Source: a virus (Duplodnaviria; Heunggongvirae; Uroviricota; Caudoviricetes). From it: DNA of 11,178 bases. The position numbers and the translations under genes were made by a program. The notes below the pieces were generated by a model. That model made no database searches. It was not told the origin of the DNA and saw nothing but the letters and a program-made list of their open reading frames with translations. Shown here piece after piece: positions 1-11,178 of the stretch. The stretch lies in IMG/VR virus record IMGVR_UViG_2671180710_000027. One strand, 5' to 3'. Positions within the stretch are counted from its first letter, which is position 1, and each line of letters begins with the position of its first letter.

Positions 1-603
1 CTATTTCTTCTCTGTAATTTTTACACTGTTTTCCAACTGCTTGATGCTGACCTGCGGGGTCGGCAACTCCTCAGGCATGGTTCCGCCAAGTTCCTGAATG
101 GTTTGCCTCACCTTGCTACCCACGTCAAAGTGTGTGGTATTAGCTTGCTGTGCTGCCTCAACCAATTGTTTGTTATGTTCTTTCAACTCATTTCTCAGAA
201 ACAGACGCTTTTCGTCTTCACGAAGTTGCTTAAATGCTTCATCGTCAGCAAGCTCCTGCCGTCGGGTCTGGATAGCAAAATAAGTCTGCCCTGCCGCAAT
301 GACCGGTTTCGCGGGGTCGCCGTTTTGTACTACCAGGTAACAGGCATAGCGGGAGAGTACGATGTCTTTTAATGCTCTTTTGGCATTTGAGCCAATTTTG
401 ACCATATCGAGGATCTCCTCGAAATGGTCATCAATTGTGTGACCACTGTTCTCACAGGCCTCTTTGGCGCGCGTTAATACAGGTATAAAGTGACGATACA
501 CTGAATAACCCAGTAGTTTCCCAAGTTGTCTTGCTGACCATTGTTCTGCTCCGTTTGCATTAATCAGTTTTATCTCTTCAAAAGGTTGATGATGTTCGTT
601 CAT
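1..603 (-). CDS. dinD: DNA damage-inducible protein D (DinD)
   Basis: ORF-track protein (MNEHHQPFEEIKLINANGAEQW...) recognised from memory as DinD. Complete, with TAG stop at 1-3. Preferred start is the ATG at 601-603 (GGAG about 8 nt upstream) rather than the in-frame ATG at 613-615. A canonical LexA box lies about 45 bp upstream. Confidence 0.8.
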   Translation of the reverse strand: MNEHHQPFEEIKLINANGAEQWSARQLGKLLGYSVYRHFIPVLTRAKEACENSGHTIDDHFEEILDMVKIGSNAKRALKDIVLSRYACYLVVQNGDPAKPVIAAGQTYFAIQTRRQELADDEAFKQLREDEKRLFLRNELKEHNKQLVEAAQQANTTHFDVGSKVRQTIQELGGTMPEELPTPQVSIKQLENSVKITEKK

Positions 604-646
604 TGCCCACTCCATGTGATATCGATTGCAAAGAAAGTAAATCTGT

Positions 647-789: not shown

Positions 790-1016
790 GTGAAGGCTGA
801 AAAGTAAGAATTAGTGTTACGAGTTACTCAATTGAATCTGAATGTTTAGTATGTGCGTTAATTGCTTTTATTATGCGGTTCTTTGGGTTGGGTTAATTTG
901 TATATGTACACGCGTATGTACACATTTTTCGTGAGTGCTCAATAAAACGGGATACGAAAGCCGTTTTTATGTGGCTTTAAAGTGGGTTTAGAAATGGCGC
1001 AATTGTGCTTTTGGCG

Positions 1017-1098
1017 TGCTGGTGGCGGGGGTCGAACCCGCATACATGATCAGCCTGTACAGGCTGGCACCGACTCTACCCGTTGAGCGTACACCAGC
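1017..1098 (-). other. tRNA-like sequence (degenerate; probable attachment-site relic)
   Basis: Minus-strand read gives a perfect 7-bp acceptor stem (GCTGGTG / CACCAGC), a perfect T-arm (GCGGG-TTCGACC-CCCGC) and a D-arm resembling GCTCAGTTGGTAGAGC. The anticodon region is a 5-bp stem with a 6-nt loop inside the palindrome AGCCTGTACAGGCT, spacers are oversized, and no CCA is encoded. Confidence 0.5.
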
Positions 1099-1480: not shown

Positions 1481-1888
1481 TTAGTCTTGCGTGATTTTAT
1501 TGGCGTGCTTCTTTCTAAGCCGCCGAATGATATCGTAAATATGGGTCTCGGATATCGCGTACTCTTTACGTAATGCCTGCAATTTTTCGCCGTTATCCCA
1601 CCTGTAGTAAATCTCGTATTCGCGCAATGCTGCGAAAAGTGATCTGCCTGTTGGAAGGTAAAGACTCCGCCCACCAGCATAGAAGGCGATTGCAGCAACA
1701 ACCCGCTTTGCGATTCTGAAAGCGTCTGCCTCCTCCATGCCATTACGGGTAAGTTCTGCCACTGAATGCGACACGATATCAGCAAGCGAATCACACCATG
1801 CATCACCTGGTTTATCTCCGCCGTCTATGTCATTCATGAATTTAAGCCGCTCGATGTCTTTTGGTACGTGATGGGTTTGCTCGTTCAT
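1481..1888 (-). CDS. Mor-family transcriptional activator
   Basis: 135-aa ORF. The C-terminal half (YLPTGRSLFAALREYEIYYRWDNGEKLQALRKEYAISETHIYDIIRRLRK) parallels phage Mu Mor (YIPRGQALDSLIRDLRIWNDFNGRNVSELTTRYGVTFNTVYKAIRRMRR, recalled). AAGAGG lies 7 nt upstream of the ATG at 1886-1888. Confidence 0.8.
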   Translation of the reverse strand: MNEQTHHVPKDIERLKFMNDIDGGDKPGDAWCDSLADIVSHSVAELTRNGMEEADAFRIAKRVVAAIAFYAGGRSLYLPTGRSLFAALREYEIYYRWDNGEKLQALRKEYAISETHIYDIIRRLRKKHANKITQD

Positions 1889-1977: not shown

Positions 1978-2274
1978 CTAACCGACTGTTCCGGCTCTGT
2001 GCTTATTTCTGGTAGCTACGCCAGATTTTTTACATCTCCCTCCTATCCCCATTTCTGCGTAAGTGCGGTTTACTGCTTTCCTCAGGTCTGCGTAGTTCTC
2101 CTCTGGCGGCTCCGGTGGCCTCTGTGCCTTCCCGTAACACTCTGCCCTGCGCATTGCCACCCGTTCGCGTTCCCTGTCAGTCTCCACCAGCATCATCACT
2201 TCGGCCCATCGCGCCGCCGCTCTCCGGTAAAAGCCTTTCGACTCCAGTTCTTCCGCTATGCGGTCATGTACCAT
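1978..2274 (-). CDS. PerC-family transcriptional regulator (PerC/Pch-like)
   Basis: 98-aa ORF beginning MVHDRIAEELESKGFYRRAAARWAEVMMLV, recalled as the PerC family N-terminal signature. GAGGGGG lies 6 nt upstream of the ATG at 2272-2274. Confidence 0.65.
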   Translation of the reverse strand: MVHDRIAEELESKGFYRRAAARWAEVMMLVETDRERERVAMRRAECYGKAQRPPEPPEENYADLRKAVNRTYAEMGIGGRCKKSGVATRNKHRAGTVG

Positions 2275-2285
2275 CGTTCACCCCC

Positions 2286-2540
2286 TCAGAACGGAATATT
2301 GTCACCGCAGGGGTCATAACTTCCCGCTGGTGGCTGATTGCTCTGTGTGCCTGTGGTACTGCGTCTGCTCCCGCCTGGACGCGTCGCCCGTGCACTGATT
2401 ATGCTGTCCGCTATGACCTGATAACCCTGCCGCGTTTCCCCGTTCTGTCCGGTCCACTGGCTTACCTGCATCGTGCCGGATACGCTGATTACGTTGCCTT
2501 TCTCATATCCTGCCAGTCGGTCGGCCTGTCTGAAAAACAC
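2286..2540 (-). pseudogene. 5'-truncated single-stranded DNA-binding protein (ssb remnant retaining C-terminal tail)
   Basis: The 84-aa ORF aligns to the C-terminal half of SSB (SQWTGQNGETRQGYQV against RKWTDQSGQDRYTTEV) and ends ...GDNIPF, like the SSB DDDIPF tip. The frame opens with GTG at 2538-2540 directly after an in-frame stop at 2547-2549. No SSB N-terminal OB-fold sequence was found in any frame upstream. Confidence 0.6.
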
Positions 2541-2865
2541 GCTTTCTTAAACAATGCCTAAAAGCCGATTTTATGGTGCTTTGAAACGGTTTTTAAAATG
2601 GCGCTCGTGGTGTACTCTCTGGCATTCAATGGCGCTCTGTGATGTGGCTGGTGGTATGTGGCCGCCATGCATAATGGGGCTGATTTTGTTCATGGCCCGG
2701 CAATGGGTGAGCATTTTTTACCATATTCAGGGTAACAATGGGCGAAAAAGTTCATTTCTGGCATGGCCTGAAATTCCATGCAGCCCGCGCCGCGTGTGCT
2801 CTTGCCGGGGAAAACGTCGCGGAATAATGACCGCACCCCACCTTATGGCGGTGCAGTCCCACGAA

Positions 2866-2934
2866 ATCCCGGTTATTTCCGTTTATTCCCGGATTAATCC
2901 CGCCTTTTCCCGCATTCTCCCGGCTGTTCCCGGA
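2866..2934. repeat. Seven direct repeats of TCCCG(G/C) phased at 10-11 bp
   Basis: TCCCG-type units at 2867, 2877 (degenerate TTCCG), 2887, 2898, 2908, 2918 and 2928, in a non-coding gap. Confidence 0.7.
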
Positions 2935-2956
2935 ATTAATCGCCGGGGTGTGGTGG

Positions 2957-3247
2957 TTATCTGGTGTGGTCGTAGTTCTGCCGTAGTCGTTCACCCTCAG
3001 CGCAATGACGCGGTTTTTTAACGCCGCTGGTAGCACAATGCGGGCAGGTCATGACGTGGCTGATATACGCATCACGGGCAGCCAGCCACGCCGCAGACGG
3101 GGCGCACATATCCGCCAGCGTCTGGCCGTTGCTGGTGGTGTTGTCTTCCGGCCATGTTTCGGACTGGTGCGCTTCCTGTAAATCCGGTGCAGGTAATGCC
3201 CGGATAAACTCACACAATGCATCCGGCAGGCTGAATAACTTATGCAT
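2957..3247 (-). CDS. Hypothetical small protein with Cys/His cluster (possible mosaic ORF)
   Basis: 96-aa ORF with ATG at 3245-3247 and no clear ribosome-binding site. Contains CPHC...HC. It carries an in-frame 34-bp segment (3101-3134) nearly identical to part of the helicase gene (4481-4514). Confidence 0.35.
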   Translation of the reverse strand: MHKLFSLPDALCEFIRALPAPDLQEAHQSETWPEDNTTSNGQTLADMCAPSAAWLAARDAYISHVMTCPHCATSGVKKPRHCAEGERLRQNYDHTR

Positions 3248-3670
3248 AAATCTGATGTTCTGAATCGCTGAAAACGTGCGTTTTATGGTGTTTTTTCGTG
3301 ATTTCTGCGTGTTCTGATGTGCTCATTTCGCTGTATCCCTTGTGTGGCGCGGGCTGCGCGTGTGTTTCGGTGTTCTTTTTTGCCGCCAGAAAACGGTAAT
3401 CAGGCATATAAACACGGCTGTAAGCCGCGCCGCGTCTGGCTTCGCGTGATTTTGTGCGCTAAAAAGTGCATTTTTGCCCTTAAAAAGCGTTATTCGTGAT
3501 TCACTGGTAAATGCTCCACATGCCGCGCCATTGCTGGGCTTTTCGCTATTCTGTGTGGTTTTGCTGTTTAACCCGTTTTGCACACTGAAATTGCCTTGCA
3601 TCCAGCGCCACGTAAGGGATTTCCGGGTTTTTATGGTGCGTTTTTTGCCGTGCGTAATATTGTGCAAGTT

Positions 3671-3913
3671 GGTGGGACTGGTGGGAACTGTGGGAACCGC
3701 CTAGAACCACGCGGCTTTCAGTGGTTCCCACCAGTTCCCACGGTGGCTTTTTGTGGGAACCGTGGCGGTTATTTTTTGTTCTCTGTGGTTCCCACCAGTT
3801 CCCGCAGAGTTCCCACTCAAAAACGAACAATAATCATACTGGTGATTTTATTATTTACTGATTTATATATGTTTTATTTTTACGGTTCCCACAGTTCCCA
3901 CCAGTCCCACCAC
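3671..3913. repeat. Iteron cluster with AT-rich core: candidate origin of replication (P4 ori/crr-like)
   Basis: About 11 copies of the octamer GTGGGAAC / GTTCCCAC in both orientations (3671-3698, 3724-3741, 3752-3761, 3789-3816, 3885-3910). They flank an AT-rich stretch at 3817-3884 and lie immediately downstream of the helicase gene. Confidence 0.65.
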
Positions 3914-3946: not shown

Positions 3947-5785
3947 TTATTCATCAATTGCGAATAACAATGCATTCTGGTCGATGGCGTAAACGCGGTG
4001 TTTTTCCCCGTTAACGGAAACGCGTTTTGTGTATCGGCGTTTCCCGTCCGTGTCGCGGTCAACAATCGCGCCAGCATCATCAAGACTGGCCGCTATGCGT
4101 TTCAGGTCGTAGCCGCTGGCCGCCTCACATAGTGCTTCCGGTAAAAACCAGTAAACCCGGTCGCCGTTGCTCCCCGGTCGCCACCATCCGGCGCGGTTGC
4201 TTACTGGTTCGCTGTATGTGTTGCCCCCTTCAAAGCGTGAGGCATGGCGGGCGATAAACCCGGCGACGGCCCGGAGTATTTTCACGTCCTCCGATTGCCC
4301 CCGGCCACGATAGTCCGACCACGCAGCAAACATCGCTTTCACCGCCTCCAGTGCTTCGCCCTGTTTCCACGGCAGAATCCCGGCAGTTATCGCCATTTCA
4401 CCGGCCAGTGCGCACAGTGTGAAACGCGCGGCGGCGCGCGCCTCCTGCCCGGTGCTTACGGGGAATTGTTCGCGCAGTATGGCGTACATATCCGCCAGCG
4501 TCTGGCCGTTGCTGTCGGTGCTGGTGGTGTCACTTTCATTGCGGGAAATCAGCCAGCGCACAAACTCCGGCCCGGCGTGGCCGTAATGGGTGGCCGCATT
4601 ACCGCGCAGCGTTTCGGCAAATTTCCGGCCTGCTCCACGGCGTTCTGTGTCGTTGTCGGGGTTGTGGGGTAGTGCCATTCCGTGGAGGCAGTCAAACGCC
4701 CCGTAAAGCCGCTGTGCCGGAATATCCAGTAACCGCATTTCCTGCCCGGCCTTGATGCGCTGACCACCGCTTTCCATGTGTTTACCCACGGTCATTTCCC
4801 CTGTGGAAATAATCATGGTGCGCCATGTGTTGACCGGGCGGGCCATGCCGGACACCTTGCCACGCTGGCGGCCTGTTCCGTTGCCAAGCTGATAAATCAG
4901 CCCGCCAATATCTCTGGCCGGGGCTTCGCCAATTTCATCCAGTATCAGCGCGGTATCGTTCCGCATGGTCGCCAGCCCTTCAAGCCCGGTGCTGGTGGCG
5001 TTCCAGTTGCGTTTAAAGTTGCGGGGTTCTCCCCATACGCTACAGGCCACCAGCGCCCCCACGCTTTTCCCGCTGGAACTGTCGCCCATGAAATGAAATC
5101 CGCCGCTGTCCACATCAAGCAGCCACAGCAACGGCCCGGCGAGTGATGCACACACTGCCAGCATGGCTACCGGGTTTCCCCGGCATAATGCGGCCACGTT
5201 GTCGCGCCAGCCCTCCGGCGTTCCTGCGGTGGCGTACTCCTGTGAGCCTGCTTCTGTTGACTGAAACACCACATCACCATCACCGATAACCCCGCCCGGC
5301 ATGACAAACAGGGTCGGGGAGTGCCACCCGGTGGCCGTAGCCGCGAGCGCCCGTCGTTTTGGTGCTGACTCCATGATGTATTCGGTCAGTGCCTGCCGTT
5401 GTTTGTAGGGAATGGTAACGCCCATGCGCAGCAGCTCCTGTCGGAGTTCTCCGCCGTCTCCGGCGAGCATTTCCATCGGTGCGGCCCATTCCCGCCACTG
5501 GCCTGACGGCGTGAGAAAACGGAGTAATCGCCCGTAGTTTTCGTCTTTGCTGTCGCTGGTCATGGCGATAACCTCCAGCGGGGAACAGATAAACGTGTCC
5601 GTGTTGGTTGAGTCGCGCACGCCGTGCCAGTAAAGGCCGGGTTTCAGTATCTGGCCGCCGTCCACCTGTACATGCTGCGAATAAGTGGCGTAGCCCGGAC
5701 GTGCCGGGCTGACTTTGGGGTGTTTCTTGCGTGGTGGTTTTCGCTTCCCGGATGTGACCGGGGTTTTAGTGGTTGTCCGGGTCAT
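3947..5785 (-). CDS. Replicative helicase, SF3/P-loop NTPase (P4 alpha C-terminal-like, DUF927-type)
   Basis: 612-aa ORF with Walker A GDSSSGKS and Walker B LILDEIG. Its ATG at 5783-5785 overlaps the primase 3' end by 20 bp. Confidence 0.85.
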   Translation of the reverse strand: MTRTTTKTPVTSGKRKPPRKKHPKVSPARPGYATYSQHVQVDGGQILKPGLYWHGVRDSTNTDTFICSPLEVIAMTSDSKDENYGRLLRFLTPSGQWREWAAPMEMLAGDGGELRQELLRMGVTIPYKQRQALTEYIMESAPKRRALAATATGWHSPTLFVMPGGVIGDGDVVFQSTEAGSQEYATAGTPEGWRDNVAALCRGNPVAMLAVCASLAGPLLWLLDVDSGGFHFMGDSSSGKSVGALVACSVWGEPRNFKRNWNATSTGLEGLATMRNDTALILDEIGEAPARDIGGLIYQLGNGTGRQRGKVSGMARPVNTWRTMIISTGEMTVGKHMESGGQRIKAGQEMRLLDIPAQRLYGAFDCLHGMALPHNPDNDTERRGAGRKFAETLRGNAATHYGHAGPEFVRWLISRNESDTTSTDSNGQTLADMYAILREQFPVSTGQEARAAARFTLCALAGEMAITAGILPWKQGEALEAVKAMFAAWSDYRGRGQSEDVKILRAVAGFIARHASRFEGGNTYSEPVSNRAGWWRPGSNGDRVYWFLPEALCEAASGYDLKRIAASLDDAGAIVDRDTDGKRRYTKRVSVNGEKHRVYAIDQNALLFAIDE

Positions 5786-6809
5786 GCTCCATTTCCCATA
5801 GCATCAAATCGTTAAAGTCGGAAAGGTCTGGTGATGCACCGGGCGGCCATTCCGGGAATGTGACGTAACATCCGGCCAGCAATGCGGCTTCGTTGGCTGC
5901 TCTGGAACCGGGGTTGCCTTTTGATGCCCGGTCATCATCCCCGGCGATAACGAGAGATATGCGCGAGCCGTATCGTTCACGCAGCGCCATAGCCACATGT
6001 TTAAGGTTTCCCGCATTCATGGCACACACCACGGCCATGACGTTCCAGTACTGGAGAAGGGCGGCCCCGGTGGCCCACCCCTCACACACGTAAACGTCAT
6101 GTTCCGGCGCTTCCGGGGCCATCAGGTCAAAGCTCCCCATAACATGGAAAGCCCCCTGCACCTGACCATCACGGAGAAACATTTTTCGACCGTCCGGGCT
6201 GATAATCTGCACGTTCACCACTTCGCCGCATACGTTGTACAGCGGGACAAGCAAATCATTACCCGACTGATACAGATTGCCGGGCTGTAGCCGTTTTTTC
6301 ATGAGATAGGGATGAGAAGGGGTTGCCACCTCCGCCCGGCCAAGCAACTCAAAGGCCCGGCAGGCGGTCAGTTTCTGGCGCTGGTGGCGTTGTTGCTGCT
6401 CCCGCTGGCGGAGTCTGCCCGCCTCCTGTTCTGCGGCCTGTACCCGCACCCGTTGCGCCTCCCGTTGTTCGCGGGTCATTACATCAGGTTTGCCCAGTGC
6501 GGGCAGGCACAGCCCCAGCCTGTCCGCCACAATACGGGCGGCATCAGTCTGACGCACATTCCACAAATAAGCCCCCAGCGCCACAAGGTCGCCGCCGCTG
6601 TCCCCGGTGGCGAAGTCGTGCCAGCATCCGTCCACCAGCGAGACGAAAAAACTGCCCGCGTGACGGTCTGCACGTGTGGGGTTACGGCACACCCATTCAG
6701 TGGCCTGCCGTTTACCTTCGGGCAGCCATTCAGGAACAAGGATTTCCGCATGTTGTGCCGCCACTGCGGCAACGCTGCGGATTGCGTTAATCGTGGCTAT
6801 GTCACGCAT
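5766..6809 (-). CDS. TOPRIM-domain DNA primase (P4 alpha N-terminal-like)
   Basis: TOPRIM motifs VYVCEGWATG and LVIAGDDD. Preferred start is the ATG at 6807-6809 (GGGAGGG upstream, MRDIATINAIR...), not the TTG at 6885-6887 used by the ORF track. Confidence 0.85.
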   Translation of the reverse strand: MRDIATINAIRSVAAVAAQHAEILVPEWLPEGKRQATEWVCRNPTRADRHAGSFFVSLVDGCWHDFATGDSGGDLVALGAYLWNVRQTDAARIVADRLGLCLPALGKPDVMTREQREAQRVRVQAAEQEAGRLRQREQQQRHQRQKLTACRAFELLGRAEVATPSHPYLMKKRLQPGNLYQSGNDLLVPLYNVCGEVVNVQIISPDGRKMFLRDGQVQGAFHVMGSFDLMAPEAPEHDVYVCEGWATGAALLQYWNVMAVVCAMNAGNLKHVAMALRERYGSRISLVIAGDDDRASKGNPGSRAANEAALLAGCYVTFPEWPPGASPDLSDFNDLMLWEMEHDPDNH

Positions 6810-7116
6810 GTTGCCCGCCCTCCCTGATTTCCCCGGTGCGGCAGCGCCAGTTATACGCCTCCACAACCTCACTGAATCCGGCCACAAGTTCAGCCGTAAC
6901 AGCGATGGAATCGCCCAGGCTGCGTAGTTCGCCCATGCTGGGGTCGAGATTGTCGCCCATGCCGGAAAGCAGGCGGCCTGTGCTAATCAGCCCTTCAAGC
7001 AGTTTGCGGGCGCAGTAATCCGCATCATCAAACAGGGCGCGGGCTTCCTGTGCGTCTGCGTTTTTGATGGCCGCAACCAGTAGTTCAGGTATCCGGGTGT
7101 TATACATATCACACAT
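6802..7116 (-). CDS. Hypothetical acidic protein (104 aa)
   Basis: ATG at 7114-7116 overlaps the upstream stop in an ATGTGTGA junction, and its own stop overlaps the primase start in ATGCGTGA. No motif recognised. Confidence 0.55.
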   Translation of the reverse strand: MCDMYNTRIPELLVAAIKNADAQEARALFDDADYCARKLLEGLISTGRLLSGMGDNLDPSMGELRSLGDSIAVTAELVAGFSEVVEAYNWRCRTGEIREGGQHA

Positions 7117-7405
7117 GGCTTACCTCCCCGGCCTGCTGGTCGTAACACTCCATCAGTTCGGCCATACAGCCAATGAGGGCAGGGGCTGTCTGTAGAAATC
7201 CGGCTAATTGGCAGATCTCGTCTCTGGAATAGGTGATGGGGTTTTCGCGTAACTGGCTTCCCTCCAGTGCCTTACCAACAAAGGCAATCCCCGCCAGTAA
7301 ATTCACTCTGTGCCAGTCGGCATCAACGCGCAGAATCCAGTGGCTTTCTTCGTCCGGCATACTGCTCATGGCGGCTTTCATTGACTCACGCAGACAATCA
7401 CGCAT
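7109..7405 (-). CDS. Hypothetical acidic protein (98 aa from ATG 7403-7405)
   Basis: The ORF-track start at 7435 is a TTG. The ATG at 7403-7405 sits in an ATGCGTGA overlap with the upstream stop and has GGGGG 6 nt upstream. Confidence 0.5.
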   Translation of the reverse strand: MRDCLRESMKAAMSSMPDEESHWILRVDADWHRVNLLAGIAFVGKALEGSQLRENPITYSRDEICQLAGFLQTAPALIGCMAELMECYDQQAGEVSHV

Positions 7406-7862
7406 GGCGCGCCCCCTGACGAATACGGGCGACAAAAATCATATGCGCGTGCGGTAGCTGCGCGCGTGCTTCGCGTTCTGTTGCCGCCGTGACGGTAAAG
7501 AGCGAGGTTTGTTTTTCCTGGCACTGCATAAAGCGCCAGACAAAGTAAGGGCGTGCGAATACAGCCATGTGAAAGGCTCCTATGTTTGAGGTAAGGAGTC
7601 TCGCTACTACGCTGCTAAACGGGGTGGCGAGACGTAACGGGGTTAGCAGACTGGCAACATAGAAACCAGCGAGCGCAAAGGCTCCCCCGTCACGCCCCGC
7701 CATAATGCGGGTATGGGTAGGTTTACGGACACAAAAAAACCGCATATCGGAATGTAAGCGGCTGTCCGCTATGTTATTCAGGCTGCTAAACCCGGTCACC
7801 ATGTGGGTGACTCCGGCATCATACAGCCCGAAAGAAGAGGCGATCAACATGTTTTTAAGCAT
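7398..7862 (-). CDS. Ash/Icd-like family protein (long form 154 aa; possible short form 7398-7568)
   Basis: C-terminal 56 aa (MAVFARPYFVWRFMQ...HMIFVARIRQGARHA) is paralogous to the Icd-like protein upstream. The long start at 7860-7862 overlaps the upstream stop (ATGCTTAA). An internal ATG at 7566-7568 has GGAG 8 nt upstream, so the true start is ambiguous. Confidence 0.5.
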   Translation of the reverse strand: MLKNMLIASSFGLYDAGVTHMVTGFSSLNNIADSRLHSDMRFFCVRKPTHTRIMAGRDGGAFALAGFYVASLLTPLRLATPFSSVVARLLTSNIGAFHMAVFARPYFVWRFMQCQEKQTSLFTVTAATEREARAQLPHAHMIFVARIRQGARHA

Positions 7863-8052
7863 GGCTCACCCCCTGAGCCGGAACGCGGCCAGCAAAAAGC
7901 AACACAAAATCACGCGCCAGCATACGGCGGGCGGTTGTTTCGTCGGGTGCGTTGACGGATTCGCGGTGTGGGCGGTCGTTCAGATCGGAACGGCGAACGG
8001 CCAGAAAGTGAAAGGTAAATTCAGGGTGTAACGGGGTTGGGGTCGTAGCCAT
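7855..8052 (-). CDS. Host cell division inhibitor Icd-like small protein (65 aa)
   Basis: MATTPTPLHPEFTFHFLAVRRSD...ARRMLARDFVLLFAGRVP matches the recalled Icd-like pattern. The ATG at 8050-8052 has AGGAGG 8 nt upstream. The 201-aa ORF-track version adds a Pro/Gly/Arg-rich N-terminal extension that I consider non-coding. Confidence 0.6.
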   Translation of the reverse strand: MATTPTPLHPEFTFHFLAVRRSDLNDRPHRESVNAPDETTARRMLARDFVLLFAGRVPAQGVSHA

Positions 8053-8481
8053 TCTGGCAGCCTCCTTTTGCAAATTTAAGGAGTCACCGCCTGAGTTTCC
8101 ACGCTCATAAGGGGCGGTGACGCTGGCGGGGGTGGAAATACCGGCGCAAAAGGAAACCGGCCAGCCTTTCGGCTGCCCCACCAGCGCCACCATAGATACA
8201 GTGCGGGCCTTGCCGCTGTTCATGGTTGCGCGATGGCACGACACAAAAAAAGACGCTGGGCGCGTCTGTGTCGCCTTTTGCTCATTAAACGGGTTTCCAC
8301 GCCCGGCTGGTGGATTTACACCAGCCGGGGAAATATAACGCCCACCAGCGATGGCAGGCAAGCAATATTTGCGGTTGCCGCCCATTCTGTGGGGCGTGTG
8401 GTGGTTGTTTTGGGCGTGAGAACGCCCCGGCCCTGTTGCGGGCCTTTCTGGCATTTTCATGATTAAAATTCTCTGACGGGG

Positions 8482-8688
8482 TTAATTGCGCGTGCTGGTC
8501 GTGCCTTTGCGGTCAGCGAGCCACTGGCGGATAGCGGAAACATCAAAGCGGCTTACGCCATCGCCCAGCTTATCCGGGCTGGGGAATTTACCTTTTTTAA
8601 CCCAGTTCCATAGCGTCGATTCGCTAATCTGAAAATGGTTTATCACCTGTGCCGGGCGCATATAGCCGGATTTGGGTAAGGTATCCAT
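8482..8688 (-). CDS. alpA: AlpA-family phage regulatory / excisionase-like HTH protein
   Basis: 68-aa ORF with an HTH (MRPAQVINHFQISESTLWNWVKKGKFPSP) followed by RFDVSAIRQWL, typical of AlpA/Xis-type proteins. AGAGG lies 9 nt upstream. Confidence 0.8.
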   Translation of the reverse strand: MDTLPKSGYMRPAQVINHFQISESTLWNWVKKGKFPSPDKLGDGVSRFDVSAIRQWLADRKGTTSTRN

Positions 8689-9811: not shown

Positions 9812-9906
9812 GGTTTACGTTACCTTTGACGCTACCTTAAAAATAAACCGGGGCAGGCGGTAAGGTTTCCCGCTTTTCGCGCCGTCGCGCTATCCCCGGT
9901 ATGTTT

Positions 9907-11178
9907 TTATTTTGCAATCGCTTTTGTGATGGGGGTTACGTTGTATTCATCCCCCTGTTCCAGAGCCACCAGCAGGTCGGCCCATAACTCCAGAGCGTGG
10001 CGGCGTTCATTGAAATACTGATGGCGGTTATAGATACCCTCAACGCCTTTAATTCGGTGGTTCAGGCAGCGTTCCGCCACTACAGGGTCTACCCCAAGCG
10101 CGGCAAGGTGAGTTCTGGCTGTGCGTCGGAAATCGTGAACGGTAAAACCCGGCACACCAGGCATTTCCCGGCGAACCTTAGCCAGCGCAACGGGCAGGGT
10201 GCTTTCCTGTATGTGTGGAATCATGCGCTGTTGCATTTTGCGGGCCGGAAGCACCCAGCGGCTACCGCCTGAAATGCTGTGTAATTCGCGCAACCATGCC
10301 ACCGCTGGTGGCGGTAGTGGGATATCAATGGCATCCCCGTTTTTAGCCCGTTCGGCAGGGAGTCGCCATACAGCACTATCTAAATCAAATTCATCCCACT
10401 GTGCGGCGCACAACTCCATTTTTCGGCAGCAAAGGCAAAGTATCAGTTTCATGGTGAGTTCATTCTCACGGCTGAATCCTTTAGCTGTGCGCATGGCCTG
10501 AAAAAAATGAATGAGTTCATCACGGGTTAGCCATCGGTCGCGGCTTTTTTCAGCCCCACCAGCATCTGATAACTCAAAAGCAGCGGCGGGGTTTGTTTCC
10601 AGTGCGTGGCGTTTGATGGCGTAGTCGAATATCCGTTTAGTCCATCGCAAAACATCATTGGCGACTGTTGGCGCTCCGCGGTCAATAATGCGCTGTAGCA
10701 TTGCGTCAATATGGCGCGGTTTAACGTCTTCGACTTTCAGGCTGCCAATCTGAGGGTTGATATCTTTGTCTATGCGGCGGCGGAGAATATCGGGATGTTT
10801 CCAGCGGGGTAGTATTTGCCGTTCGTAGTATTCGGCTGCCAGTTCTGACACGCGAAGGGCGTTTTTTTCTTCCTCAATCCGTGCCAGTGCCGCCGCTTTT
10901 CGGGCCTGCTTTTCTCCGGCCACGTCATGGCCCAGCGCAACACGGGCGGCCAGTTCTTTAACGGTGGCGCGGGCTTTACTTAGTGACAGGTCGGAATATG
11001 AGCCGATGTGCATAGCACGTTGTTTCCCGGCCATCCGGTAACGATAGCGCCAGAATGGGGCGTTATATTTTTCAGGGAAGCACAAATACAGGCCGTTACC
11101 ATCGGCGCGGGCATCAAAGCGTTCCCCGGCCTTTATCCACGCCTTTATCTGAATATCCGTTAACTTCGCCTTTGTCAT
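9907..11178 (-). CDS. int: Tyrosine site-specific integrase, P4 family
   Basis: 423-aa ORF whose N-terminus (MTKAKLTDIQIKAWIKAGERF...GNGLYLCF) resembles the P4-type arm-binding domain. The C-terminus carries the catalytic motifs HDFRRT and LNH...GIYNRHQY. The start codon is at the window edge. Confidence 0.9.
   Translation of the reverse strand: MTKAKLTDIQIKAWIKAGERFDARADGNGLYLCFPEKYNAPFWRYRYRMAGKQRAMHIGSYSDLSLSKARATVKELAARVALGHDVAGEKQARKAAALARIEEEKNALRVSELAAEYYERQILPRWKHPDILRRRIDKDINPQIGSLKVEDVKPRHIDAMLQRIIDRGAPTVANDVLRWTKRIFDYAIKRHALETNPAAAFELSDAGGAEKSRDRWLTRDELIHFFQAMRTAKGFSRENELTMKLILCLCCRKMELCAAQWDEFDLDSAVWRLPAERAKNGDAIDIPLPPPAVAWLRELHSISGGSRWVLPARKMQQRMIPHIQESTLPVALAKVRREMPGVPGFTVHDFRRTARTHLAALGVDPVVAERCLNHRIKGVEGIYNRHQYFNERRHALELWADLLVALEQGDEYNVTPITKAIAK

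Follow-up and report, generated by a model that had tools for sequence, protein, structure and literature searches.

Single-stranded DNA-binding protein (SSB) ends in a C-terminal tip that is the docking site for many genome-maintenance proteins, and a reading frame that keeps this tip without the first half of the protein raises the question of whether it is a broken gene or a small protein in its own right. Such a frame, here called ssb', lies at 2286–2540 on the minus strand of the window, i.e., the whole stretch of DNA that was analysed, 11,178 nucleotides in length. In the light of the homology, junction, and allele comparisons described below, ssb' in all likelihood has no function as a protein and is the 3′ remnant of a satellite ssb gene.

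A satellite island beside dinD

Between positions 571 and 11178, the window and the chromosome of E. coli 2012EL-2448 share 99.94% identity, and in the ssb' stretch the two are 100% identical. This sequence contains an island of ~10 kb between yicC and dinD, with the host/island boundary at ~840 by comparison with K-12. The island genes are all on the minus strand and comprise an integrase, a 317-aa hypothetical gene, an HTH/AlpA-like gene, two Icd-like genes, toprim and DUF927 genes, a 96-aa hypothetical gene (hyp96), ssb', perC, mor, and a tRNA-like element. The features on which the argument depends are as follows.

957–1000, plus strand: first copy of a 44-nt direct repeat, 80% identical to the second copy
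1017–1098, minus strand: tRNA-like element (PGAP: tRNA-Tyr; Rfam tRNA 35 bits, gathering score 29)
1481–1888, minus strand: Mor-family activator (Pfam Mor, E 3.7e-23)
1978–2274, minus strand: perC-family regulator (Pfam PerC, E 2.8e-35)
2286–2540, minus strand: probable ssb remnant ORF (ssb'), 84 codons from a GTG start codon plus a TGA stop that is counted within these coordinates
2532–2540, minus strand: recombination junction (seven-sequence DNA alignment, blastn end points, and pairwise blastn)
2541–2956, minus strand: non-coding right-end region of DUF927/toprim satellites, the 5′ junction partner (92–96% identity to related islands)
2561–2604, plus strand: second copy of the 44-nt direct repeat (repeat search; copies in related loci)
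2957–3247, minus strand: hyp96 (ORF list; RefSeq CDS; kept in ssb-less relatives)
3947–6887, minus strand: replication module, toprim plus DUF927 (Pfam; RefSeq annotation)
3947–5785, minus strand: DUF927 primase-helicase-like protein
5766–6809 (PGAP) or 5766–6887 (longest ORF), minus strand: toprim-domain protein
8482–8688, minus strand: HTH/AlpA-like gene
9907–11178, minus strand: integrase

An integrase, an AlpA-type regulator, a primase/helicase module, the orientation of all genes on one strand, the length, and a specific integration site are all found here, and no phage structural or lysis genes occur in the island; this architecture points to a PICI-like phage satellite. A published description names PerC-family genes as typical of Gram-negative PICIs (PMC11773190).

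Several other parts of the window deserve a description of their own. In a frameshift alignment, perC has lost 1 nt from an A7 run at codon 83, near 2027–2033; as a result, the last 7 residues are different and the protein is lengthened to 98 aa, with the Pfam PerC domain (residues 1–80) left intact. PGAP flags perC as frameshifted in 2012EL-2448. The tRNA-like element, located at the distal end of its module, folds with acceptor, D, and T arms and an aberrant anticodon hairpin around GUA (6 bp, 4-nt loop), and ARAGORN finds no tRNA at 1017–1098. A degenerate second copy lies at ~1109–1200 (PGAP 'tRNA-OTHER'), and the pair is also present in three related loci (L004, L005, and L009), with the sequence extending into a fourth (L018). 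Iteron-like direct repeats, (A/T)TTCCCG(G), at 2855–2941 with 10- and 31-nt spacing and short inverted repeats are located between hyp96 and the junction, within the conserved 2541–2956 region, and form a candidate satellite replication origin. A 43-nt segment (~91–97% identical) occurs both at 3101–3143 in hyp96 and at 4481–4523 in the DUF927 gene, in both cases encoding ...SNGQTLADM..., and an inverted pair of ~30 nt (3670–3699 and 3883–3912) is placed in the gap between these two genes.

Further upstream, two tandem immunity-like modules on the minus strand (7620–7824 and 8110–8338), each consisting of a C4 antisense RNA (74 and 82 bits), an isrK-like RNA, and a1/b1 target sites, overlap the Icd-like cell-division-inhibitor ORFs at 7398–7862 and 7855–8460, which amounts to a duplicated P1/P7-type c4-icd arrangement within one satellite. 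An int-alpA RNA (Rfam RF02996, 64 bits) is located at 9835–9900 on the minus strand, just 3′ of the integrase gene and before the 317-aa gene. On the host side, dinD (window 1–615) has undergone an internal loss of ~212 bp relative to K-12 and 2012EL-2448, with the joint at ~142–151 and an ORF of 204 aa instead of 274 aa; the dinD of L017 is similarly short (200 aa). Positions 357–571 also differ from 2012EL-2448, and the window is therefore taken as a close relative of that strain, not that strain itself.

The SSB homology of ssb' and its start signals

The translation of ssb', MFFRQADRLAGYEKGNVISVSGTMQVSQWTGQNGETRQGYQVIADSIISARATRPGGSRRSTTGTQSNQPPAGSYDPCGDNIPF, corresponds to residues 54/56–136 of a 136-aa satellite SSB when aligned to its full-length relatives, and it comprises part of the helix, β4, β5, the disordered linker, and the GDNIPF tip; it ends in ...GSYDPCGDNIPF, where intact relatives have GGDDPYGDDIPF or GDNIPF. 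Residues 2–47 match positions 55–101 of the 104 in the Pfam SSB profile (PF00436; E 2.6e-6, 27.8 bits, cut-off 26), and TIGR00621 gives 33.7 bits over profile positions 57–131 of 165, below its cut-off of 53.95. In a tblastn search with a 136-aa relative as the query, only residues 54–136 are recovered in the window, at 2537–2289 (82% identity, E 1.5e-43). The match to SSB is far beyond chance. The N-terminal 55 residues of SSB have no match in the window in any frame (tblastn, best E 0.41), the 5′ 165 nt of an intact ssb yield only 8–10-nt chance words against the window (blastn), and an in-frame TAA is found at 2547–2549, two codons 5′ of the GTG. These searches confirm what the earlier note had described from the letters of the window, namely the distal half of an SSB OB fold with a GDNIPF tail, in a frame that opens right after an in-frame stop and has no N-terminal SSB sequence upstream in any frame.

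Bacterial SSBs combine a complete five-strand OB fold, matched end to end by the profile, with a disordered linker and an acidic/hydrophobic tip (consensus D-D-D-I-P-F); of these, ssb' has the linker and the tip and lacks the complete fold. In the AlphaFold model of the intact satellite protein, strands at residues 2–11, 16–19, 25–35, and 45–54 are followed by a helix (55–62), two further strands (69–82 and 88–101), and a disordered region (102–136), and its OB domain aligns to residues 10–104 of E. coli SSB (1EYG). The AF2 model of a full-length relative thus contains β1–β3, the helix, β4, and β5, whereas that of the fragment retains two of the five OB strands, as a β4–β5 hairpin only, with low-confidence flanks and a pTM of 0.28. 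Judging from these models, ssb' probably gives no stable protein, at most a β4–β5 hairpin with a disordered tail, and it is unlikely that its product binds single-stranded DNA or oligomerises into a dimer or tetramer. The same limitation appears in comparison with the chromosomal SSB of E. coli (1EYG, 1EQQ, and 4MZ9), a distant OB-fold homologue that likewise has a disordered linker and an ...IPF tip: with the last two OB strands only, ssb' has no OB barrel on its own.

The closest full-length counterparts are 136-aa SSBs of PICI and cf-PICI satellites (e.g., WP_000126697, WP_000126693, and WP_096981542), to which ssb' has 75–83% amino acid identity over residues 56–136. A perC neighbour, an 11-nt spacer, the Shine–Dalgarno (SD) sequence of perC, the linker, and a G-D-D/N-I-P-F tip are common to both; however, ssb' is devoid of codons 1–55 (β1–β3), its first three codons are foreign, and it carries private replacements at otherwise invariant positions. 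An H-to-Y change in the 'AGHEKG' motif was considered as a parallel to ssb-1 (H55Y) and rejected, as manual alignment places the position at ~Y70/L71 of E. coli SSB and the intact protein of L020 also has Y there.

The signals for starting translation have changed along with the fold. The native ATG and its SD sequence, GAGGTGG, are gone; the predicted SD pairing amounts to −2.4 kcal/mol for the GTG, in a non-productive position, and to −1.7 kcal/mol for an internal ATG (codon 24), as compared with −7.8 kcal/mol for intact ssb and −12.5 kcal/mol for perC. The same GTG is also present in islands without ssb, and it is an accident of the junction, derived from the non-SSB partner. A scan for a dedicated promoter upstream of ssb' returned a single weak sigma-70-like match, TTTAAA-18-TAAAAT (2597 to 2568, in the reverse complement of the second 44-nt repeat copy and directed towards ssb'/perC), which is no more than shuffled sequence gives. 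Because perC starts 11 nt after the ssb' stop on the same strand, the perC-mor message probably includes ssb'.

The status of ssb' as a remnant is already known through RefSeq, in which the locus of 2012EL-2448 is labelled 'single-stranded DNA-binding protein; incomplete; missing N-terminus' (pseudogene C7A04_RS11600 in NZ_CP027586.1); this is the same locus as ssb', without any biological difference, and two diverged relatives carry the same pseudogene label. PGAP gives the pseudogene a span of 252 bp and assigns no start; counted from the GTG to the end of the stop codon, the ORF measures 255 bp. In some GenBank submissions, the 84-aa ORF is entered as a protein (clusters P0001–P0004). Two tryptic peptides of the 84-aa ORF are QGYQVIADSIISAR and STTGTQSNQPPAGSYDPCGDNIPF.

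The junction and its two parents

In related satellites, an intact 136-aa SSB gene is located directly 5′ of perC, and both the 11-nt spacer and the ribosome-binding site of perC are as in the window. The order ssb-perC-capsid genes, of the cf-PICI type, is seen in L002, L003, L019–L023, and L027–L034, and the order ssb-perC-mor-tRNA-like element-island end, in which ssb is full-length, in L009 (located in mdtP, with a RepA helicase) and L018 (at ileX, with a D5_N primase); this latter is the parental island type, and its right-end module includes mor together with ssb and perC. The gene is very frequent: among 5426 complete E. coli genomes, 1698 match a blastn query that includes the ssb remnant, and the assembly collection has 8909 indexed blocks with P0016, one of the intact alleles. 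The DUF927/toprim islands related to the window include ssb-less members, i.e., cq9 (L006) at ileX/nfeF and Z0117EC0133 (L007) at yicC/dinD.

An alignment to full-length ssb genes, which the earlier note had proposed as the means of locating the breakpoint, puts the cut between codons 55 and 56 (window 2532–2535), with unrelated sequence beyond, at the junction of two satellite lineages. At this point, the coding strand of the window reads ...AAGAAAGC GTG TTT TT|C AGA CAG GCC..., cq9 reads ...AAGAAAGCGTGTTTTTCCCAATAGGC..., and intact ssb reads ...GCA TTT GGC AAA CAG GCC... (A53 F54 G55 K56 Q57 A58); the GTG TTT TT is the right-end region of a DUF927-type island, and SSB homology begins at C AGA CAG GCC, where intact genes have GGC AAA CAG GCC. 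The blastn matches of both partner classes end at query position 247. On one side, 2286–2532 is ~88% identical to the ssb genes of other islands, and the sequence from 2532 to 1009 matches the ssb(3′)-perC-mor-tRNA-like segment at 93% identity in L018 and at 91% in L009. On the other side, 2532–2960 is ~94% identical to the right-end region of ssb-less DUF927/toprim islands, which comes after hyp96, the gene that closes the DUF927-type module on the upstream side of the junction. The islands compared over 2541–2956 include cq9 and Z0117EC0133, and in relatives without ssb this region runs on into the att-proximal arm: in cq9, DUF927-type sequence continues past 2532 into an arm of ~95 bp and the ileX att core, and this arm is also found in L018, whose ssb-perC-mor is intact. 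Because each side of the junction matches a different island type, the window island is a chimera, with a left parent like cq9 and a right parent like L018/L009.

Two other explanations of the region's structure were set aside. A site-specific hotspot at 2532 was rejected, since with a cq9-like left parent the divergence point is the crossover by definition, and the microhomology at the crossover is only 15/24 nt. The two 44-nt repeats, which bracket the tRNA-like/mor/perC/ssb' segment, were rejected as att duplications of a tandem element in view of the host boundary near 840 and of L009 and L018, in which the repeat is absent. Z0117EC0133 has a single copy of the repeat and no such segment, and the repeats explain its ssb-less structure, through deletion or replacement between copies, and not the break in ssb.

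A protein search recovers the 84-aa form as four clusters (P0001–P0004), with 86–99% identity to the window ORF, together with a 97-aa variant (P0081), and all variants begin with MFF(R/K)Q; P0004 by itself is present on ~60 contigs. Wherever context is available, the 84-aa alleles are located in the same DUF927-hyp96-ssb'-perC-mor island beside dinD (yicC/dinD) with the same MFF junction, and the truncated form is found in only 7 of the 5426 complete genomes. Since all 84-aa alleles occur in one chimeric island, their distribution indicates a single event, in which the truncation arose once and then diversified. Other N-truncated remnants of the same gene family exist, namely P0088 (98 aa) and P0084 (90 aa), with breakpoints at residue 40 or 47. 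P0088, broken at residue 40, ends in DDIPL and is located directly 5′ of perC in a degraded island near cybC (L024–L026, 5001–5297, beside a 106-aa PerC; 58 blocks of the assembly collection); its different breakpoint, chromosomal context, and mutated tip make it an independent event.

In the most coherent account of these observations, a DUF927/toprim-type PICI-like island lost its last ~95 bp and became fused, by illegitimate or microhomology-guided recombination, to a point halfway along ssb in a second satellite carrying the module ssb-perC-mor-tRNA-like element. The simplest route may be that the two satellites were arranged in tandem at one attachment site and that a deletion between them removed the last ~95 bp of the first element, the att site, and the second element from its integrase to ssb codon 55; no tandem intermediate for such a deletion was found, and this route is put forward as a model. 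The event would have removed the promoter-proximal sequence of ssb, its ribosome-binding site, its start codon, and codons 1–55, thereby leaving 81 SSB codons fused to three foreign codons that happen to begin with GTG. The earlier suggestion of a deletion remnant is thus upheld by a codon 55/56 junction common to every 84-aa allele found, as well as by the RefSeq pseudogene call.

Decay, constraint, and competing readings

Three hallmarks of a pseudogene, namely a defined truncation breakpoint, the loss of start signals, and a disabling mutation in some copies, are seen in ssb'. For instance, the allele of NCCP 13963 carries a CAG-to-TAG change at codon 41, upstream of the tail, which is flagged by PGAP, and its perC and mor are annotated as intact. 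The truncated alleles have 16 replacements that are absent from 64 full-length 136-aa representatives, six of them at positions invariant in those 64 (A58T, K66Q, G83D, V99I, T115A, and Y130C), and the replacements near the tip include D127Y, D132G, and D133G; intact representatives have a mean of 0.6 private residues over the same stretch. At the DNA level, private changes of the truncated lineage were counted against 6 and then 12 full-length alleles, and the latter comparison gives 18 non-synonymous (1 nonsense) and 11 synonymous changes with an omega of ~0.49; the one nonsense change among these 29 compares with a neutral expectation of 1.0. The pairwise dN/dS among five truncated DNA alleles is 0.37, and the omega of the intact C-terminal half is 0.26–0.32. 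Against neutrality, the private-change omega gives a binomial p of 0.05–0.23 depending on the assumed fraction of non-synonymous sites (0.05 under one site model and 0.16–0.23 under others), and Fisher's test of the truncated against the intact C-terminal half gives a p of 0.39. The use of dN/dS as a decisive test was therefore dropped, as values of 0.37–0.49 versus 0.26–0.32 separate neither hypothesis and recombination with intact genes undermines the measure.

Decay of ssb' in related islands, which the earlier note had taken as a sign against a functional fragment, is seen in part: the nonsense codon of NCCP 13963 fits such decay, but most alleles keep the frame open and the IPF tip is kept in every truncated allele. 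The frame is open in four of the five DNA-level alleles and in the intact 'MFF...' clusters P0001, P0003, and P0081, with one broken allele; protein databases list only open ORFs, which is an ascertainment bias, and in the complete-genome sample, free of the bias of ORF calling, one of three alleles is broken. No indel occurs within the 255 bp of any truncated allele, while the adjoining 416 bp of non-coding DNA has 3–5 gap openings per pair.

Exchange with intact genes offers an explanation for this apparent preservation. In comparison with L017 (GCA_037685705.1), the window is 99.95% identical in DUF927 and 100% in hyp96, and the values are 94% for ssb', 87.5% for perC, and 94.6% for mor; the left part is near-identical and the right-end module is much more diverged, from which it follows that satellites which are otherwise identical have swapped this module. 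A conversion tract resembling L003 is present in L004, intact alleles share 13 of the 42 segregating sites, and the four-gamete test is failed by 10 of 120 site pairs. Imported variation that has already been purified by selection would lower both the apparent omega and the indel count, and the open frame, the missing indels, the constant IPF tip, and an omega below 1 can be explained by such import, by ascertainment, and by a GC-rich sequence without homopolymer runs.

Mis-assembly or a frameshift is often the cause of truncated ORFs in draft data, and an artefact of this sort would hide the N-terminal half of a gene that is really full-length. Nothing was found in support of this reading, and the junction is identical in seven independently finished complete genomes and dozens of draft assemblies, none of the window's frames encodes the N-terminal part of SSB, and the upstream DNA is the well-conserved but different sequence of ssb-less islands, all of which makes an artefact hardly credible. 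An unlikely reading, though one with several observations in its favour, is that the open, translated frame is under selection and its residues are not, ssb' being a cis-acting leader ORF for perC-mor that acts through coupling or protection from Rho. The start of perC so shortly after the ssb' stop, with a strong SD sequence (GGGGGTGA) that is the same as in intact islands, agrees with such a role, as does the freedom from indels beside non-coding DNA that has some, and an intermediate dN/dS with many private replacements is the pattern to be expected if the frame matters and the residues do not. However, efficient translation of the leader is doubtful from a GTG that is essentially without an SD sequence, coupling should not be needed by a perC with such strong SD pairing of its own, and the stop at codon 41 in NCCP 13963 coexists with a perC and mor that are annotated as intact.

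The possibility raised in the earlier note, an expressed decoy, is very improbable; here a small protein with an IPF tail would compete with the SSB of the host or a helper phage for tip-binding partners such as Exo I, RecQ, PriA, or the chi subunit. Equally little weight falls on its specific form, in which a product of 84 aa, or of 61 aa if read from the internal ATG, would be made at satellite induction and titrate tip-binding host or helper proteins through its tail. The tail and its terminal IPF are indeed intact in the window and in all alleles, the ORF is open in most of them, and dN/dS is below 1. Nevertheless, the start codon arose fortuitously at the junction and has no SD sequence, the peptide, with no predicted fold beyond a hairpin, is probably unstable, a nonsense codon precedes the tail in one allele, and acidic or conserved residues close to the tip are changed in several alleles (D132G, D133G, Y130C, and D127Y). 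The form is also rare and confined to one island lineage, and the independent remnant P0088 has lost the terminal Phe. A monomeric SSB tail has low (micromolar) affinity and must compete with abundant tetrameric SSB. A full-text literature search, judged by titles and abstracts, returned nothing relevant on a natural decoy for the SSB tip. An expressed decoy is thus left unsupported, with a start lacking a ribosome-binding site, a nonsense allele, and substitutions that are compatible with neutrality.

The reading of ssb' as a 3′ remnant also accounts for its persistence. Located 11 nt 5′ of perC, it would be carried along with that gene and probably transcribed as a leader with perC-mor, and homologous recombination with intact ssb-perC modules of other satellites keeps refreshing its sequence. 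A deletion that spares a retained downstream gene would leave a 3′ remnant of the gene upstream, and the SSB tail is accordingly kept for positional reasons and not for what the tail does; positional retention is supported by the independent truncation P0088, because it also adjoins perC.

Taken together, ssb' appears to be an ordinary gene remnant whose origin can now be given precisely, as the junction of two satellite modules at codon 55/56. Several GenBank records call the 84-aa ORF a bona fide SSB and RefSeq calls it a pseudogene, and the evidence favours the pseudogene call. If the peptide were nevertheless expressed and active, it would amount to a natural inhibitor of the SSB interactome that arose by accident and was subsequently kept. 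The locus shows why, where a downstream gene is retained, the remnants next to it are usually 3′ fragments resembling tail-bearing mini-proteins, and it provides a clear example of PICI-type satellites assembled from modules by recombination.
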